A stretch of 64,000 nucleotides of DNA, from the NCBI GenBank assembly GCA_049903315.1, contig JBNGBT010000008.1, positions 32,001 to 96,000 of the forward strand, read 5' to 3'. Under the pieces are notes generated by a model. That model did no database searches, was not told the DNA's origin, and saw nothing but the letters and a program-made list of their open reading frames with translations. This stretch comes from Candidatus Cloacimonadota bacterium (GTDB taxonomy: Bacteria > Cloacimonadota > Cloacimonadia > JGIOTU-2). The position numbers and the translations under genes are program-made. Below are positions 34,529 to 45,007 of the stretch, piece after piece (position 1 is the first letter of the stretch; each line of letters opens with the position of its first letter).

Positions 34529-35174
34529 AAGATTAGTTGTATTTCTTTCAATAATAATAATAATTTTGGTCGGATCATATATTGTTGTTTCTTTATATCT
34601 TATCAGCGATCTGACAACAAAGAATGATATTTTAAAACAGGAAAAGCAGGGTTTGGACCTCAAGGTCAAACAACTCGAAGATGTGATTGCCTCATTGCCC
34701 AAAGATACAAAAAGCCCGGTTATTCAATCAAAAGCAGTAGAAAATATTCAGGTGCATGAGAAAGAGCTCGAAGCAGCGACAGATGATTTTATAAACTATC
34801 AGCAGTATATACCGAATTTTTGCCCTCTTGCTGAATTGATCCTTACAAAGCCATATTTGCCAAAGCGAAGCCACTACGGCATAGACCTTGCAGGAAAGAT
34901 TGGCGAACCGGTTTATGCTGCAGCTTCAGGAGTCGTGGAATCAATCAATCTTGATGACGAGATCTATGGAAAAATTCTTGTACTCGATCATCTTAATGGA
35001 TATAAAACAAGTTACGGTCATAACTCCCACATAAATGTACAGGTCGGGACCTTTGTGCGCAAAGGAGAACAGATTGCAGAAGTCGGCAACACAGGTATTA
35101 GTTCTGCCCCGCACCTGCACTTCGAAATTTTATTACATGACCAAAATATCGATCCGGAGACAAAAATAAAATGA
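34518..35174 (+). CDS. M23 family metallopeptidase
   Basis: HYGID, YGH, PHLHFE. N-terminal TM and coiled coil. Confidence 0.9.
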   Translation: MKHRRLVVFLSIIIIILVGSYIVVSLYLISDLTTKNDILKQEKQGLDLKVKQLEDVIASLPKDTKSPVIQSKAVENIQVHEKELEAATDDFINYQQYIPNFCPLAELILTKPYLPKRSHYGIDLAGKIGEPVYAAASGVVESINLDDEIYGKILVLDHLNGYKTSYGHNSHINVQVGTFVRKGEQIAEVGNTGISSAPHLHFEILLHDQNIDPETKIK

Positions 35175-35188
35175 GATGGAGGTTTTAA

Positions 35189-35560
35189 GTGAAAAACGGA
35201 GAAAATAATTTGGATACCATTATTGGAGAACATACGAAATTCAATGGAGAAATTCATTCTGAAGGTGGTGTTCGCATCGATGGTGAAGTTGAGGGAAAAA
35301 TTCATTGTGAAGGTTTTTTACTTATTGGAGAAAAGGCAAACATCAAAGCCAATATCCAATCCGACGAAGCGATTATTTCTGGCAAAGTCGAGGGGAATAT
35401 CACTATTGAGAAAAAATTGGAACTTAAGAGTTCCGCGCTGATCAATGGCGATATTATAGCAAAGGTGCTTTCTATGGAATCTGGAACACAGATCAGCGGA
35501 AATTGCAGCATAAAACAGGTTGATACCCAGAAAAGCACAAAAAAGAGCAAAGAAAAATAA
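35189..35560 (+). CDS. Bactofilin (polymer-forming cytoskeletal protein)
   Basis: TIIGEHTKFNGEI...RIDGEVEGKI repeats. Typical pairing with an M23 peptidase. Confidence 0.9.
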   Translation: MKNGENNLDTIIGEHTKFNGEIHSEGGVRIDGEVEGKIHCEGFLLIGEKANIKANIQSDEAIISGKVEGNITIEKKLELKSSALINGDIIAKVLSMESGTQISGNCSIKQVDTQKSTKKSKEK

Positions 35561-35565
35561 CCACA

Positions 35566-35802
35566 ATGCCTGTGAAGAACAAAGGGTATTACAAAGAGGT
35601 TTTTGAGGGACTCGGGCTTGTGGCACAGCTCGGTCTCACAATGATTATTAACATTTTAATATTTTTTTTCGTAGGATTATTCATTGAAAAAAAATGGCAT
35701 CTCAAAGGTATTCCAATAATCATCGGAGTTTTTTGCGGAGTTGTTTCAGGTGCATTTTCATGTTACCAACTCATAAAAAAAAATGAAAATTCTGACAAAT
35801 AG
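35566..35802 (+). CDS. AtpZ/AtpI-family small membrane protein
   Basis: Two TMs, 'LVAQLGLTM...GLFIEK'. First gene of atp operon. Confidence 0.75.
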   Translation: MPVKNKGYYKEVFEGLGLVAQLGLTMIINILIFFFVGLFIEKKWHLKGIPIIIGVFCGVVSGAFSCYQLIKKNENSDK

Positions 35803-36166
35803 TTTTCGCAAGTACGTATATCATATTCTCGGGCTGATTTTCTTGACAGAGATACCGGCTCTTTTGCTTATCACACAAAACTTGAAGCTTTGGCTAGGTT
35901 ATTTTCTTGGCTCAATTCTCTCAAGTGTGAATTTTTATTTTCAGGCAAAGGGCGCAGAGAGCAGAGTGGGACTAAGCCCCACAGGAGCAAAATTAAGCGT
36001 ATTCAGGAATTTTTATATACGCTATTTGGTTTTGGTTGTATTCGTAGTTGTTTCTGTGAAGTTCTTAGAAGTAAATATTTTTTCTCTTCTTGTCGGCTTA
36101 CTCATTGCTCCAGCTATTGTTCTAATCGATGGTATTCATGCCGGAAAAAATAATCAGGAATCCTAA
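35783..36166 (+). CDS. atpI: ATP synthase protein I
   Basis: Four TMs, 'FYIRY'. Upstream of atpB. Confidence 0.75.
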   Translation: MKILTNSFRKYVYHILGLIFLTEIPALLLITQNLKLWLGYFLGSILSSVNFYFQAKGAESRVGLSPTGAKLSVFRNFYIRYLVLVVFVVVSVKFLEVNIFSLLVGLLIAPAIVLIDGIHAGKNNQES

Positions 36167-36182
36167 TAAGATATAAGTTGAT

Positions 36183-37013
36183 ATGAAAAAAAAGTCCAAG
36201 AAAGCATTGATAATAGTTCTTATAATAATAGTTATTGAGGGGATACTTTCTGTCGGACTTAATCATGAACTTCAGGTTGGAATTGATGATGGCAGATTCG
36301 TTATCAGAAATATTGAGAGTGAAAAATCCATTCAGGATCAGATCAATCATGAATTCCAAAACTATCATATAGTAAAGCTTTTCGGAAAATTTACTATCAA
36401 TTGGAGCGTGTTGCGCGTTATTCTTTTTGTAGATCTTTTTTTGATATTATTTGCAGCGCTTGTCAGACGAAAGATGCATCTTATCCCAGGGAAATTACAA
36501 ATTATTGCAGAGATGATATATTCGTTTTTTTCCAGTCTTGTGATTGAAACAGTCGGTGAGAAGAAGAAATATTTCACGCCCTATATTTTTACAATATTTG
36601 TGTTTATCTGGATATGCAATATAATCGGAATGATCCCCATTCCGGGAAATCTTGAGCCAACCAGGAATTTAAATGTTCCTCTTGGACTAGGACTCATGGC
36701 GCTGGTAATTGTTCATTATTCCGCAATAAAAGAAAAAGGAATGAAGCTCTACCTGAAAGAATATGCCGAACCGATTTCTTTCATGCTCCCCATAAACATT
36801 GTCGGCGAAATTGCAAAAGGGATTTCTCTCTCCTTTCGTCTTTTCGGGAATATTCTTGGAGGAGCTATCATTATTCTCGTAGTTTCGAATCTCACCCGTT
36901 TTATTCTTATCCCGGTTGGTCTTAATCTGTTTTTTGGTTTGTTCATCGGAACGGTGCAGGCATTTGTGTTCACCATGCTTGTGCTGTCATATACCGCAGT
37001 GGCAATAAAATAA
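36183..37013 (+). CDS. atpB: F0F1 ATP synthase subunit a
   Basis: PGKLQ, SLSFRLFGNI, QAFVFTML. Confidence 0.95.
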   Translation: MKKKSKKALIIVLIIIVIEGILSVGLNHELQVGIDDGRFVIRNIESEKSIQDQINHEFQNYHIVKLFGKFTINWSVLRVILFVDLFLILFAALVRRKMHLIPGKLQIIAEMIYSFFSSLVIETVGEKKKYFTPYIFTIFVFIWICNIIGMIPIPGNLEPTRNLNVPLGLGLMALVIVHYSAIKEKGMKLYLKEYAEPISFMLPINIVGEIAKGISLSFRLFGNILGGAIIILVVSNLTRFILIPVGLNLFFGLFIGTVQAFVFTMLVLSYTAVAIK

Positions 37014-37014
37014 T

Positions 37015-37746
37015 ATGTTTGATACCTTTAGTTTAGTACACGTTGCAGCATACCTCGGTGCAGGTCTTGCAGTCGGCATTTCGTCGATCGGAGCAGGCAT
37101 TGGAGAGGGCTATATTGCAGGCAATGCGAACATTGCAATGATGAAGCAGCCGAAATCAAACGATATTCTTCTTCGCACTATGCTTATCGCACAGGCAATT
37201 ACAGAAACCGGAGCTATCTTTGCACTCGTGATCGCAATGCTTCTCCTTTTTGGTGGTTCTATTATACCCGAAGCTAACTGGCAGAGGATCGCTTCATTAT
37301 TTGGTGCGGGACTTGTTATGGGAGCGGGTTGTCTCGGAACCGGTCTTGGAATCGGGTATGCTGGCGGACAGGCGTGCAAGGGAATAGGCAGGCAGCCACG
37401 AGAATCAAAAGTTCTTACAGCAAACATGCTTATTGGGCAAGCGCTGTCCGAAACATCGGCTATTTTTGCCTTGGTCATTGCGATGCTTCTTCTTTATTCT
37501 ACACCTGACGGAAACAGCATCGTGAAATCTTTCGCTTTTATTGGTGCAGCATTTGCAATGGGATTCGGAACGTTCGGTCCCGGATTTGGCATCGGTATTG
37601 TGGCGGGAAAAACCGTTGACGGTATCAGCAGGTTTCCAAAGCAGTCTGCAGTACTTGTGAGAACGATGTTCGTAGGCGCCGCTGTGTCGGAGTCAACTTC
37701 AATATATGCATTAGTTATTGCATTTTTATTATTATTTGTAGCATGA
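37015..37746 (+). CDS. atpE: Triplicated F0 subunit c (three fused hairpins)
   Basis: Three GxGxGxG...(K/R)xP...AxxE repeats in 243 aa. Confidence 0.9.
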   Translation: MFDTFSLVHVAAYLGAGLAVGISSIGAGIGEGYIAGNANIAMMKQPKSNDILLRTMLIAQAITETGAIFALVIAMLLLFGGSIIPEANWQRIASLFGAGLVMGAGCLGTGLGIGYAGGQACKGIGRQPRESKVLTANMLIGQALSETSAIFALVIAMLLLYSTPDGNSIVKSFAFIGAAFAMGFGTFGPGFGIGIVAGKTVDGISRFPKQSAVLVRTMFVGAAVSESTSIYALVIAFLLLFVA

Positions 37747-37767
37747 TTATAATCCTTAGGAGGATAC

Positions 37768-38007
37768 ATGGAAAGTGAAATCATTAGAGCGGCAGCATTA
37801 TTGGGTGCTGGCATTTGTATGGGCTTCGGTGCTATCGGACCTGGAATCGGCGAAGGTTTTACCGCCGGAAAGGCATGTGAAGGCATCGCACGTTCACCCG
37901 AAAACGCCGGACTACTCACCAGAACAATGCTTGTCGGTCAAGCAGTATCAGAATCAACCGGTATCTATTCACTGGTCATTTCTCTATTACTTATTTTCGC
38001 AGTGTAA
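37768..38007 (+). CDS. atpE: F0 subunit c, Na+-binding two-carboxylate type
   Basis: GPGIGEG...QAVSESTGIY. Strong AGGAGG RBS. Confidence 0.95.
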   Translation: MESEIIRAAALLGAGICMGFGAIGPGIGEGFTAGKACEGIARSPENAGLLTRTMLVGQAVSESTGIYSLVISLLLIFAV

Positions 38008-38011
38008 GAAC

Positions 38012-38048
38012 TCCCGTCAAATCGGGAAGGAACCCCGAAATTTCGGGG
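38012..38048. repeat. Two short hairpins between atpE and atpF
   Basis: TCCCG-TCAAAT-CGGGA and perfect palindrome CCCCGAAATTTCGGGG (38033-38048) abutting the atpF RBS. Confidence 0.6.
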
Positions 38049-38061
38049 AGGAGTATCAAGT

Positions 38062-38562
38062 ATGGTTAATATTGATTATACGCTTATTCTGGTGATCGTA
38101 AATTTCATTGTTTTGCTATTCATCCTGAAAAAGCTCTTGTATAAGCCGCTCATGGACTTTATCAACAAAAGAGAATCTCAGATAAGAGATGACCTCCAGG
38201 GCGCAAAAGAGCTTAAAGAAGAATCTACCAAGATTCTTGAGAAGCAGAAAGAATTGCTTCGAAAAGCAAAAGAAGAAGCCAGAAGTATACGTGATGAAGC
38301 AACAAAAAGTGCGAAAATACAGAGCGAGCAAATTCTTCATGATTCCGAAAAACAACGGGATGTGATAATACAGGAAGCTCAGGAAATTATCGATGTAGAA
38401 GTAAACAAAGCAAAAGAAAGCATTCAGTCTCAGATTGGAGATTTTGTCATAGAACTGACCGATAAAATCATCGGCAAGAAACTCACCGAAGATGATGATG
38501 TGAAACTCATTAACGATATGATAAAAGAAGAGAGCAAAAAAAAGGAGTCGTCTGTTGATTAG
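38062..38562 (+). CDS. atpF: ATP synthase subunit b
   Basis: N-terminal TM 'VNFIVLLFILKKLLYKPL' and coiled coil. Confidence 0.93.
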   Translation: MVNIDYTLILVIVNFIVLLFILKKLLYKPLMDFINKRESQIRDDLQGAKELKEESTKILEKQKELLRKAKEEARSIRDEATKSAKIQSEQILHDSEKQRDVIIQEAQEIIDVEVNKAKESIQSQIGDFVIELTDKIIGKKLTEDDDVKLINDMIKEESKKKESSVD

Positions 38563-39085
38563 AAATATCATTGCAAGAAGATACTCATCAGCGCTTCTTG
38601 AGATTATCAAGAGGGATGATCTCGTACATTTTGAGAATGAGATCTCAGCATTGCAGACAATCCTGAAAGATGAGCCAGAAATTGAGGAATTTCTTGTCTC
38701 GCCCATTGTCGAGGATGAGCATAAAACCGAAATTATTGGGCTTCTCGTAAAAGAATTTAATGCATCAGAGGTGCTGCACAATTTCCTGAATGTACTCGTT
38801 GATAAAGAAAGGATATTCTATATTGCAGACATTCTTAAGGAATTGATCAGAAGAATACACAAGGAAATCGGCATCTTTGATTTTGAGCTTAAGACAGCAC
38901 ATGAACTCGATGAAGAAACAAGTGAAAATATAAAAAAATTCATCTCAAAATATGTTGATGGAAAAATAATATTTAAACATACGATTGATCGGCATATTAG
39001 AGGTGGCTTTCTCGCATTTAATGATGAACTGGCGGTAAATGCATCGATCAGAAACAATCTTGATGCTCTGAAAAGAGAGTTTTAA
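38555..39085 (+). CDS. atpH: ATP synthase subunit delta
   Basis: [24 protein letters not shown]. Confidence 0.92.
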
Positions 39086-39111
39086 TATATGAAGCAGATT
39101 ATTTTAGGAGT

Positions 39112-40815
39112 ATGATGAAAATACAACCTGATGAAATCAGTAGAATAATCAAAGAAAAAATTGAAAAGTATAACTATAAAGTTGATATAGACGAAGTCGG
39201 CAGAGTTATCGAGGTCGGTGACGGTATCGCACGTGTGTATGGCCTGCAGGATGTCATGGCATCGGAACTTGTCCTTTTCAATAATGAAATCTACGGTATG
39301 GCACTAAATCTGGAAGAGGATAATGTCGGCTGTATCATCCTTGGCGAAAGTGATAAAATCAAAGAGGGTGATATTGTCAAAAGGACAAAGAAGATCGTAC
39401 AAGTACCGGTCGGCGAAGCAACGCTGGGACGTGTGGTGGATCCCCTCGGAATGCCTCTTGATGGAAAAGAGCCGATAAAATCCAAACTGAGTATGCCTAT
39501 TGAGAGAAAAGCACTTGGCGTTATTGCACGACAACCAGTGATAGAACCCCTGCAATCCGGGCTGAAAGCTATCGACTCCATGATCCCCATCGGAAGAGGA
39601 CAACGTGAACTCATAATTGGTGATAGACAAACCGGAAAAACAGCCCTCGCGGTTGATACGATCATAAACCAGAAAGATACAGACGTCTATTGTATTTATG
39701 TGGCGATTGGACAGAAAAGATCGTCAGTAGCAAAGGTCGTTGAGGCATTGAGAGAGCATGGAGCGCTGGATTATACAATTATCGTATCAGCAACCGCTTC
39801 CGATCCTGCTGCAATACAGTATATCGCTCCTTATTCCGGTGTCACAATGGGCGAATATTTCCGCGACAGAGGTAAGCATGTACTGGTAATTTATGATGAC
39901 CTTTCCAAACATGCTGTTGCATATCGCCAGATTTCACTTCTGCTCCGCAGACCTCCCGGTCGTGAAGCATATCCCGGCGATGTTTTCTATCTCCATTCAC
40001 GACTTCTTGAAAGAGCGTCAAAACTCGAAGAAATTTATATCATCATACCAAAAGAAATGGAAAAAGCAGAAGAAGGTGTGAATAAAAAAGAATATCGAAG
40101 GCATATTAAATCAAGCGATGAAGAACTCAAAAAAGATCTTAAGGAATTAGGAAATGATAAATTCAAGTTCTATAAGCTGCCGGAAACAGGCGGTTCACTC
40201 ACTGCTCTACCAATAATCGAAACCCAGGCAAGTGACATTTCTGCATACATTCCCACGAACGTGATCTCAATTACGGACGGTCAGATATATCTCGAATCAA
40301 AGCTCTTTTATTCCGGTGTGCGACCTGCGATCAATGCAGGATTATCGGTTTCACGAGTTGGGGGCAAAGCACAGATAAAGGCAATGAGACAGGTTGCAGG
40401 AAGATTGCGTATTGAACTTGCTCAGTTCAGAGAGCTGGAAGCGTTTGCGAAATTCGGCGCAGAGCTTGATAAGGATACTCAGGATCAACTTAATCGCGGG
40501 TACAGGTATGTAGAAATACTCAAACAGGGTCAGTACAAACCAATTCCCGTTGCCAAGCAGATTGCAATAATTTTCATGGGTTATGAAGGATATCTTGATG
40601 ACCTTCCGGTCGATATTATACAGGATGTTCAGGCAGAGCTTTTCGAATTAATGGATGAAGATTATCAGAAACTACAAAAAGAACTAGTTAAACCAGATGG
40701 AGTGACAGAAGAAGTCGAAAAGCAATTGCACGAGTTATCAAAAAAAGTAAAAAAAGTTTTCGAGCATCAGGTCATCGTAGAAGAAATAATCGAAGAAGAA
40801 GCATCAGCGAAATAG
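39112..40815 (+). CDS. atpA: ATP synthase subunit alpha
   Basis: [30 protein letters not shown]. Carries an internal insertion. Confidence 0.97.
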
Positions 40816-40816
40816 T

Positions 40817-43222
<2,406 letters not shown>

Positions 43223-43223
<1 letters not shown>

Positions 43224-43642
43224 TGGCCAATAATTCACAATTGCTTCATTTAAAAATAGTCACACCTAGGGGAGTATTCTTTGAAGATGACGTGGGTGAG
43301 CTCGTTGCTCCCGGCAAAGATGGTGATTTTGGAGTCCAGACCGGGCATACGCCATTTATATCTTCAGTGAGACCCGGCATTTTGAAAATCTATAAAAACG
43401 ACAAACCAGAGCTCTATTCTCTAATCAATGGTTTTGTGATGGTGGATGTCGATAAGGTGAGAATTTTCACAGAAATAATAGAAAAACCGGAAGATATCGA
43501 TAAAAACAGAGCAGAGCGTGCAAAACAACGAGCTGAAAAACGCCTGCAGGAGAAAAAGGAACATACGGATCTTCGTCGCGCTGAAGGTGCGCTGAGAAGA
43601 GCTATTGCCCGTATTCAGATAAGCGAAGAGGGATTTCACTAA
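43223..43642 (+). CDS. atpC: ATP synthase subunit epsilon
   Basis: IVTPRG, GDFGVQTGHTP, RAERAKQRAE...LRRAIAR. Confidence 0.95.
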
Positions 43643-43705
43643 TTGATTTCTTTGACGTAGAATAAATCGATAGCTATATGTGAGTATAGCTATTTTTTTA
43701 TATAG

Positions 43706-45007
43706 GTGATACATTTGAAAAGACAAAAAAAGATATTGATAATCTCATTGGCATTTCTTTCAATGCTCTGCTTCACTACTTTACAAGCAGAACAAGAAGA
43801 TTCTCCATTCGTTGAGCACAAAGTTCTTTCAGGAGAGAATCTGTATACGATTGCCAGGAAATATATTGACCGATCCCCGACTCTTTTTCTTGGGGAATTT
43901 GTAGAGCAGATCAGAAGTGTAAATAACATCTCTGATTCTAATGTAATACATGTAGGTCAAATAATATTGATACCGACTGAAGCAACGAATCTTATCAATA
44001 AGGAAAAAGTACGACATGATTCATTGTGCGGGATTTATCTTAACACCTATTCTCTAACCGAAAATAACATGCAGCGCATTATAAACAGATATGATTCACT
44101 TAAATGCAATGCGCTTGTTGTTGATTTTTCAAATGTGAGGGGTACCCTTTTTTACTCTTCTAGAAACAATATTGCTCAGCAGAACAACCTATCAACTCCA
44201 ATTATTCGGGATCCTCAAAAACTCGCTAACATGCTGCATATGAATGATATCGAACTTATAGCCCGTGTCACAATGTTCAAAGACACGACACTTGCGCATA
44301 ACTATCCAGAATGGCGACCTGTTCTTATTCCTGATTCAACTGATACTCTTGCATCTAAGAAGAAATATGCGGAGCACTGGCTTAATCCGAATAACCAGGA
44401 AGTACAGAAATATAAACTTGATATTATCAAAGAAATAATTTCTCTCGGAGTTGATGAGATACAGCTTGATTATGTACGTTTTCCGACCGAGGGTCATCTC
44501 CTTGATGCGGATTTTGGCATTCCAGACTCAATCACGAAGCAGGATGTGATAACAGATTTTATTTCAAAAGTATATGAGGTAACTCAGCAGAAAGGGGTAA
44601 ATCTCTCTGCTGATATTTTCGGGATCGTTGCATTTCAGCATCATGATGATGTGCAGAACACGGGACAGGATATCGGCAGAATCATGCCGTATCTGGATAG
44701 AATTCATCCAATGATATATCCCTCACATTTTTATGGAGAATTCTGGGGAAAAGCATATCCCGGTAAGGAACCCTATTATTTTATTTATCGAATGTGCAGG
44801 GTGCTGAAAGAAGAAATCGAAGATGATCAAAAGATCATACCTTATCTTGAATCTTTCTCGTTGTATAATAATTATATTGATCCTTACACGATCTCTGCTC
44901 AGATACAGGCAGTAAAAGATGCGGGATTGAAAGGTGGATTTCTTTTCTGGAATGCCGGAGCAAATTATGAGTCAACCTGGAAAGCGCTTGAGGAGTTTAT
45001 AGAATAA
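43706..45007 (+). CDS. LysM domain plus putative glycoside hydrolase (DUF4015-like TIM barrel)
   Basis: HKVLSGENLYTIARKY LysM, IARVTMFKD, GVDEIQLDYVRFP, PMIYPSHF. Confidence 0.8.
   Translation: MIHLKRQKKILIISLAFLSMLCFTTLQAEQEDSPFVEHKVLSGENLYTIARKYIDRSPTLFLGEFVEQIRSVNNISDSNVIHVGQIILIPTEATNLINKEKVRHDSLCGIYLNTYSLTENNMQRIINRYDSLKCNALVVDFSNVRGTLFYSSRNNIAQQNNLSTPIIRDPQKLANMLHMNDIELIARVTMFKDTTLAHNYPEWRPVLIPDSTDTLASKKKYAEHWLNPNNQEVQKYKLDIIKEIISLGVDEIQLDYVRFPTEGHLLDADFGIPDSITKQDVITDFISKVYEVTQQKGVNLSADIFGIVAFQHHDDVQNTGQDIGRIMPYLDRIHPMIYPSHFYGEFWGKAYPGKEPYYFIYRMCRVLKEEIEDDQKIIPYLESFSLYNNYIDPYTISAQIQAVKDAGLKGGFLFWNAGANYESTWKALEEFIE

Follow-up and report, generated by a model that had tools for sequence, protein, structure and literature searches.

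Two c subunits of unequal size in one F-type operon

What kind of rotor does an ATP synthase build when its operon encodes two c subunits of unequal size? The question is raised by a 64-kb window (64,000 nucleotides, the whole stretch of DNA analyzed here) from an uncultured Candidatus Cloacimonadota bacterium (GenBank assembly GCA_049903315.1, contig JBNGBT010000008.1, positions 32,001 to 96,000). In this window, an F-type atp operon carries a 243-aa c subunit of three hairpins, R1 to R3 (hereafter the triple), followed by a 79-aa single-hairpin c (the single c). From its sequence, we take the triple to be a real, conserved three-hairpin c subunit of a hybrid Na+ rotor like that of Acetobacterium woodii, and a mixed Na+/H+ ring is a plausible reading and the most interesting one. 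The features at issue are as follows:

37015-37746, + strand: three-hairpin c subunit, 243 aa; three PF00137 stretches, E 8.5e-46
37015-37254, + strand: hairpin R1, residues 1-80; E31 codon at 37105-37107, E64 codon at 37204-37206
37255-37500, + strand: hairpin R2, residues 81-162; I113 codon (ATC) at 37351-37353, E146 codon (GAA) at 37450-37452
37501-37746, + strand: hairpin R3, residues 163-243; I193 codon at 37591-37593, E226 codon at 37690-37692
37758-37763, + strand: Shine-Dalgarno word AGGAGG for the single c, separated from its ATG by 4 nt
37768-38007, + strand: single-hairpin c, 79 aa, with the two-carboxylate Na+ motif; one PF00137 stretch, E 2.5e-18

Translation and Pfam matches bore out the motifs, the coordinates, and the glutamate in each hairpin of the triple that the initial annotation had read from the DNA. 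The motifs are AGIGEG...ETGAIF in R1, TGLGIG...ETSAIF in R2, PGFGIG...ESTSIY in R3, and PGIGEG...ESTGIY in the single c. The four hairpins align gap-free, and positions 32, 63, 65, 66, 67, and 70 are given here in Ilyobacter tartaricus numbering, in which the 32/65 pairs of the triple are E31/E64 in R1, I113/E146 in R2, and I193/E226 in R3. The residues at the ion sites are:

R1: 32 E, 65 E, 66 T, 67 G, 70 F
R2: 32 I, 65 E, 66 T, 67 S, 70 F
R3: 32 I, 65 E, 66 S, 67 T, 70 Y
Single c: 32 E, 65 E, 66 S, 67 T, 70 Y

The triple scores as an F-type c subunit (TIGR01260, 122.6 bits against a cut-off of 43.95, with three PF00137 stretches), and its hairpins have the build of that family: a GxGxGxG inner helix, a polar loop, and an outer helix bearing the carboxylate. 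It falls outside the V-type K family, whose best model, NF011483, reaches 79.3 bits against a cut-off of 188, and the operon is F-type. The residue set of a two-carboxylate Na+ site is complete in the single c; in the triple only the outward halves fit it, namely 32 and 65 of R1 and 66, 67, and 70 of R3. The Fusobacterium nucleatum Na+ site residues listed in a passage of PMC3692424 (E32, V63, E65, S66, T67, and Y70) are all present in the single c of the window, and R1 resembles F. nucleatum in carrying E32 and E65. In the single c's own numbering these residues are E29, V60, E62, S63, T64, and Y67, and they were invariant in 42 of 42 aligned proteins. Beyond the triple and the single c, no PF00137 hairpin was found in the genome (2.96 Mb, 96% complete), which makes the atp operon the genome's sole rotary ATPase.

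Species counts given here out of 80 refer to the best 80 of 581 species-level loci, and protein counts to the best 120 of 568 protein matches (8000 candidates scored), of which 85 were three-hairpin, 26 four-hairpin, and 9 five-hairpin forms. Within the species loci, the assignment of the single c to the Na+ type, made in the initial annotation, extended to 78 of 78 neighboring genes: 75 read P-E...V-S-E-S-T-G-I-Y, and three have Gln at 32. The single c is unusually well conserved, with a nonsynonymous divergence (dN) of 0 against near relatives at a synonymous divergence (dS) of 0.29-0.54, and the triple is under strong purifying selection (whole-gene dN/dS 0.016-0.057). Proteins 77-94% identical to the triple were named from Cloacimonadota metagenome-assembled genomes. 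We also note that the single c shares 77-92% identity with proteins whose names point to Auribacterota, Omnitrophica, Deferrisomatales, and Thermodesulfobacteriota; in contrast, the triple is only 54-60% identical to most Cloacimonadota triples outside its own clade.

Likeness to the A. woodii hybrid rotor

The A. woodii-like hybrid arrangement that the initial annotation had suggested was upheld when the sequences were aligned. R1 and R2 together found their best PDB match in A. woodii c1 (chain 4bem_J, E 1.4e-26, query residues 2-164 against chain residues 18-180), and the best match of R3 was the single c2 of the same ring. An AlphaFold2 model of the triple, made with 84 aligned triples, has six long helices forming three hairpins, with a predicted local distance difference test (pLDDT) value of 93.1 and a predicted template modeling (pTM) value of 0.87. 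The model superposes on 4bem_J (Foldseek E 2.6e-08, root-mean-square deviation 1.6 Å, 165 columns) and also on V-type proteolipids, Enterococcus hirae NtpK included. No solved chain spanning all three hairpins was found in the structure comparison, where TMq was at most 0.63. On alignment and model together, we regard the triple as an A. woodii-like hybrid rotor subunit enlarged to three hairpins.

Several likenesses join the two systems. The order atpB, multi-hairpin c, single c, atpF is shared with A. woodii and Clostridium aceticum. A. woodii c1 is 36% identical to R1 and R2, with a common loop K-x-P-KSNDI, and its first hairpin carries Glu and Phe70, as does R1. The single c of A. woodii is likewise of Na+ type, and the Gln in the second hairpin of c1 recurs in 73 of 80 relatives of the window's triple. 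The differences lie in the number of hairpins, two in c1 versus three here, and in the site residues. In the alignment, c1 reads G-Q-G...A-E-T-S-G-I-F in its first hairpin and G-Q-G...A-Q-T-T-G-I-Y in its second, so that position 32 is Gln in both, whereas R2 and R3 have Ile; the second-hairpin Gln contrasts with the Glu of R2, and the Glu-to-Gln loss seen in c1-type subunits is absent from the window, where E64, E146, and E226 are all present. The A. woodii single c has Gln at 32, whereas the single c and R1 of the window have Glu and are of the two-carboxylate type. The ring of A. woodii contains one c1 to nine c2/3 subunits, and it is, to our knowledge, the only bacterial F-type hybrid ring solved.

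Other rotors offer partial parallels. The c11 rings of F. nucleatum and I. tartaricus (PDB 3ZK1 and 1YCE, of two-carboxylate and Gln32 type, respectively) are homomeric; compared with them, the fused subunit of the window adds two pockets that lack the residue-32 ligand and Tyr70. The E. coli-type H+ site (Ile28/Asp61, with Ile28 presumably corresponding to position 32) resembles the inner pockets of the triple, in which a hydrophobic residue at 32 (G-I-G) is paired with a carboxylate. It differs from them in that the inner carboxylate of the window is Glu, the ring is otherwise Na+-type, and T66 and S67 are still near. Archaeal A-type enzymes are described in part of PMC9171764 as having 1, 2, 3, or 13 hairpins and fewer carboxylates. 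Like these and the V-type proteolipids, of which NtpK and V-type c superpose on our model, the triple has multiplied its hairpins within a family that has lost sites; in contrast to them, the operon of the window is F-type throughout, and NCBIfam V-type K models score far below their cut-offs. Multiple atpE copies in Rnf-dependent anaerobes are mentioned in a passage of PMC13343851. We found no description of a three-hairpin F-type c in the literature, where the hybrid-rotor review of Brandt and Muller (2015) may list such genes, and the relevant passages of two Cloacimonadota genome papers mention an F-type, Na+-dependent synthase and no fused c.

Orientation of the ion sites

According to a passage of PMC3692424, one subunit supplies Glu32 and Glu65 to the Na+ site and its neighbor supplies Ser66 and Val63; the initial annotation had assumed that the ligands of R1 and R3 point outward from the triple. 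This handedness was supported by covariation across the full set of 280 interfaces internal to 119 multi-hairpin proteins (row P0016 was dropped as truncated). Tyr70 in hairpin n-1 occurred at 28 of the 280 interfaces, each time before a hairpin n with E65 and E/Q32 (28 of 31 such hairpins). It preceded none of the 78 E65 hairpins with another residue at 32 and none of the 171 hairpins without a carboxylate. The opposite pairing had no such link, with Tyr adjoining dead hairpins in 129 of 182 cases. The pattern holds across three length classes with different arrangements, and A. woodii c1 agrees with it, both through Phe70 of its first hairpin, which precedes a Gln hairpin, and in the superposition.

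From these comparisons of sequence and model, we infer that site n takes 32 and 65 from hairpin n and 63, 66, 67, and 70 from hairpin n-1. This supports an orientation in which E31/E64 of R1 would face the preceding subunit and the S/T/Y of R3 the following one. Of the 119 proteins, 118 have S-T-Y in the last hairpin, as do 79 of 80 species, including 29 in which R1 and R2 are both dead. That this S-T-Y is kept even with a dead R1 points to a live single c as the next neighbor, and so argues for a heteromeric ring.

Distribution and carboxylate variation

Among 61 Cloacimonadota genomes drawn evenly across the phylum, all F-type genomes (32 of 61) encoded a triple and a single c, as frames of 242-258 aa and about 80-137 aa; each had four hairpins, except for one genome with five. 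The remaining 29 genomes, 28 from one family and one from another, had only a two-hairpin frame, presumably a V/A-type K subunit, in line with the relevant part of PMC12590816. The phylum was cleanly split, in that none of the 61 genomes held both the triple-plus-single set and the two-hairpin frame. In 78 of the 80 species loci, a single c comes immediately after the triple; the other two loci end at a contig edge. Longer F-type c fusions were also seen among the protein matches, of four hairpins (about 324 aa) and five hairpins (about 402 aa), some named from Desulfobacterales (among P0012-P0115). In these, the first and last hairpins are typically live (E32/E65) and the middle ones have Gln, and Tyr70 tracks the live neighbor.

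The site residues vary far more than the gene arrangement. Of the asymmetry between R1 and R3 described in the initial annotation, the S/T/Y of R3 is conserved; the E32/E65 pair of R1 was found in 41 of 80 species only. Position 65 of R2 is Gln in 82 of 85 proteins and 73 of 80 species. In R3, position 32 is Ile or Val in every one of the 80 species, and position 65 is Glu in 73 and Gln in 7, Glu having been lost there repeatedly. Among the 85 triples, 3 have no Glu, 33 have one, 46 have two, and 3 have three. Zero-carboxylate triples stand beside a normal Na+-type single c at loci L006, L008, L009, and L010 (genomes G010, G017, G023, and G002), and they occur in closed 1.6-Mb genomes; such triples would form ion-blind blocks of three hairpins.

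Three glutamates are not supported as a conserved design: the state occurs in 7 of 80 species and 3 of the 85 clustered proteins. Three Glu with Ile at position 32 of R2 are shared by the window, its congener G054, and species loci L017, L018, L019, L023, and L024; L018 has the same dN and dS as L016, the locus of G054, and the two are possibly one genome. A second three-Glu type has Ser at that position (L088 and L089), and P0044 is a third case.

Origin of the third glutamate

A maximum-likelihood tree of the 85 triples (250 columns) places the window and P0002 inside sets whose other members have N32/Q65 in R2, with support of 98 for the nesting with P0003, 95 with P0004, P0006, and P0008, and 98 for a 13-row clade. 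The R2 Glu and Ile of the window are therefore derived, and at least two Gln/Glu changes are required on the tree. From the nearest Gln-type relative, both changes are single-base steps, N to I (AAT to ATC/ATT) and Q to E (CAA to GAA). The genus-specific changes in R2 are M102, C106, T109, I113, A116, and E146, so that four further fixed changes in the inner helix accompany I113 and E146. Gene conversion from R3 was considered as a source of the Ile and Glu and rejected, as the genus-specific changes do not copy R3 residues.

Both I113 and E146 are kept in five comparisons (four genomes should L016 and L018 be the same) at dS 0.5-1.3, where values above 1 are near saturation. Whole-gene dN/dS in these comparisons is 0.016-0.029, and codon 113 shows a synonymous ATC/ATT change. 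Retention over such distances at low dN/dS shows that the two residues are no passing polymorphism. Read in this way, the sequences make the three-Glu state a derived exception in a family whose main theme is site loss.

Expression and copy number

The initial annotation had noted that the triple lacks an obvious ribosome-binding site and that the single c has AGGAGG, and the upstream sequence agrees. Only 1 nt separates the atpB stop from the ATG of the triple (37015), and the 30 nt upstream of that ATG contain no GGAG-like word. The congener has the same 1-nt spacing and likewise no such word. The position of the ATG and the missing ribosome-binding word suggest translational coupling to subunit a, which is present in single copy, and so a low copy number for the triple. 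A GGAGG-type word stands 4-8 nt before the single-c ATG in 12 of 12 loci. Metatranscriptome contigs from four runs, 90-99% alike, cover 37155-37356 and 37405-37628 within the triple and bridge atpB and the triple (36936-37086) and the triple and single c (37603-37825 and 37637-37819).

A candidate mixed Na+/H+ ring and its alternatives

How would the two subunits work together? The reading that we place first, at close to but short of an even chance, is that the triple and the single Na+-type c build one mixed ring in which the inner Glu pockets carry H+. The two proteins would share one ring in the sole ATP synthase of the organism, in the way that c1 and c2/3 are combined in A. woodii. Joined by Ser/Thr/Tyr from the single c before it, E31/E64 of R1 would make up a two-carboxylate Na+ site, and the S/T/Y of R3 would in turn supply the remaining ligands for the Na+ site of the next single c. 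Within the triple, the first inner pocket would combine I113/E146 with T66, G67, and F70 of R1, and the second I193/E226 with T66, S67, and F70 of R2. These pockets retain the carboxylate but have neither a polar residue 32 nor Tyr70, and the prediction is that Na+ does not bind there.

Passages of PMC3692424 describe Na+ sites as hydrogen-bonded polar networks and H+ sites as mainly hydrophobic, so a Glu lined by Ile and Phe should prefer H+. In the same passages, all rings characterized so far are intrinsically H+ selective, Na+ being used owing to its large excess. By analogy, the inner pockets most likely pass H+ through the same stator channel. The Na+-coupled F-type rings known in 2013 all had 11 hairpins according to that source, and by simple arithmetic an 11-hairpin ring of one triple and eight singles would hold about nine Na+-type and two Ile/Glu sites. 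The Ile32/Glu65 pocket of R3, fed by T66, a small polar residue 67, and Phe70 of R2, is the rule in the family; the R2 pocket of the window, fed by T66, G67, and F70 of R1, has converged on the same make-up. It is likely that the ring mixes Na+ sites with sites that are either proton-type or idle.

Several points weigh against the inner pockets carrying H+, and against parts of the evidence for the mixed ring. Gln stands at position 65 of R2 in 73 of 80 species and of R3 in 7, and some triples have no Glu at all; these relatives imply that the inner carboxylate is dispensable, which favors a spacer role for the triple. The R2 pocket had lost T67 and Y70, being fed by G67 and F70 of R1, before Glu returned, and may work poorly whatever ion it serves. 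The 250 columns of the tree include both trait columns, and the covariation counts come from related sequences, which overstates their independence. A triple without a Shine-Dalgarno word was seen in the window and its congener only, several relatives having GGAG-like words, and the RNA contigs come from relatives, give no expression levels, and may hold DNA.

In the main rival, the triple would be an ion-poor spacer in a hybrid ring, with E146 and E226 staying protonated in hydrophobic pockets and passing the stator like the Gln of relatives and of A. woodii c1, giving about nine Na+ per 11 hairpins, fewer Na+ per ATP, and no H+. The family trend of site loss (zero to three carboxylates per triple) speaks for a spacer, as do the zero-Glu triples in closed genomes and the two Gln counts above. 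A precedent exists in c1 of A. woodii and C. aceticum, seen as a low-energy adaptation in passages of PMC7911925 and PMC9171764, and Glu32 of F. nucleatum is constitutively protonated according to part of PMC3692424. The strongly opposite preferences of R3 (Glu in 73 of 80) and R2 (Gln in 73 of 80) would be unexpected if the residues were equivalent; they indicate that neither residue can simply stand in for the other here, and on this ground we rank carriage of H+ above a Glu that is protonated and silent. Across the species of the genus, moreover, E146 has been kept at dS 0.5-1.3 alongside five more fixed changes in the R2 inner helix. E. coli-type Ile/carboxylate sites exchange H+ at the stator, which also speaks against a silent Glu, and on balance we consider the spacer unlikely, if still a serious contender.

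Less probable by a good way is an ordinary c11-like Na+ ring with linked hairpins, in which all three hairpins carry Na+ and water or backbone oxygens replace the residue-32 and Tyr70 ligands. The T66 hydroxyl and the backbone of position 63 do remain in R1 and R2, as does S67 in R2, and the minimal Na+ motif published in part of PMC7911925 is Q...E-T/S. But Ile occupies position 32 in both inner pockets (in R3, all 80 species have Ile or Val there), Tyr70 precedes 0 of 78 E65 hairpins lacking E/Q32, and E/Q32 and Tyr70 are both retained at all live sites in the single c and in the four- and five-hairpin relatives.

We think it equally improbable that the triple stands outside the working heteromeric ring, as a homomeric ring of a second enzyme population, an assembly factor, or a conditional product: its gene lacks a Shine-Dalgarno word in this genus, and an R3-to-R1 contact between two triples would by sequence also give a complete Na+ site, but R3 keeps S-T-Y beside a dead R1 in 29 "SQ AQ IE" species, which is sensible only if a live single c adjoins it, the triple sits invariably between atpB and the single c in 78 of 80 loci at dN/dS below 0.06, and the solved A. 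woodii ring (PDB 4bem) contains its c1.

The rest of the operon and genome

The two c genes lie in a complete F-type atp operon on the + strand (35566-43642), in which all genes exceed their Pfam cut-offs and follow the order atpZ-like, atpI, atpB, 243-aa c, 79-aa c, atpF, atpH, atpA, atpG, atpD, and atpC. The genes flanking the c subunits are:

35566-35802, + strand: atpZ-like small membrane protein; PF09527 E 4.2e-10, over the cut-off
35783-36166, + strand: atpI; PF03899 E 1.7e-08, over the cut-off
36183-37013, + strand: atpB, stator subunit a; PF00119 E 9.2e-49; stop codon TAA at 37011-37013
38062-43642, + strand: atpF, atpH, atpA, atpG, atpD, and atpC, the rest of the F1Fo operon

Two of the F1 subunits carry additions rich in Lys and Glu. 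In atpA (39112-40815), an insertion of about 51 aa (residues 308-358) lies between "...ERASKLEE" and "TGGSLTALP"; in all of the best solved alpha chains, just two residues separate the parts that match residues 4-307 and 359-550. The other is a C-terminal tail in atpD (41664-43223), comprising about the last 45 residues, where the TIGR01039 match stops at residue 475 of 519. Between the single-c stop and the ribosome-binding word of atpF, two small GC stems can be drawn (38012-38048), the second ending inside the word. As a real structure they were rejected, folding no better than chance (z -1.49; 17 of 200 shuffles fold equally well). Promoter-like matches (22, versus 22.9 in shuffles) and terminator-like matches (10, versus 6.7) within 35000-44000 were at shuffle level.

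The genome also encodes two Rnf/Nqr-type gene pairs and one membrane pyrophosphatase as Na+ bioenergetics genes, and the oxaloacetate decarboxylase beta subunit had no match in the genome (96% complete). A passage of PMC8542988 proposes a Na+-based energy metabolism for F-type Cloacimonadota, and this gene set, with its Rnf/Nqr-type pairs and pyrophosphatase and without the decarboxylase subunit, is consistent with that proposal.

Implications for the Cloacimonadota rotor

The number and kind of ion sites in a c-ring set the ion/ATP ratio, and hence the smallest gradient at which ATP can be made. The three-hairpin version of the subunit is found in a phylum of anaerobic fermenters, and its zero to three carboxylates form a natural series of rotor gearings. 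The genus of the window is the extreme of this series, with three Glu, two of them in Ile-lined pockets, and what is particular to the window is the regained third Glu. We tentatively suggest, as a possibility to be held with less confidence than the mixed ring itself, a dual-ion rotor with about nine Na+ and two H+-type Glu/Ile sites that would draw on both gradients in each turn. In such a rotor, a long-dead site would have regained its carboxylate and had its inner helix remodeled, and the number and kind of sites would be tuned by lineage. The rotor of the window makes the long-discussed idea of Na+ and H+ transport side by side in one rotor directly testable.

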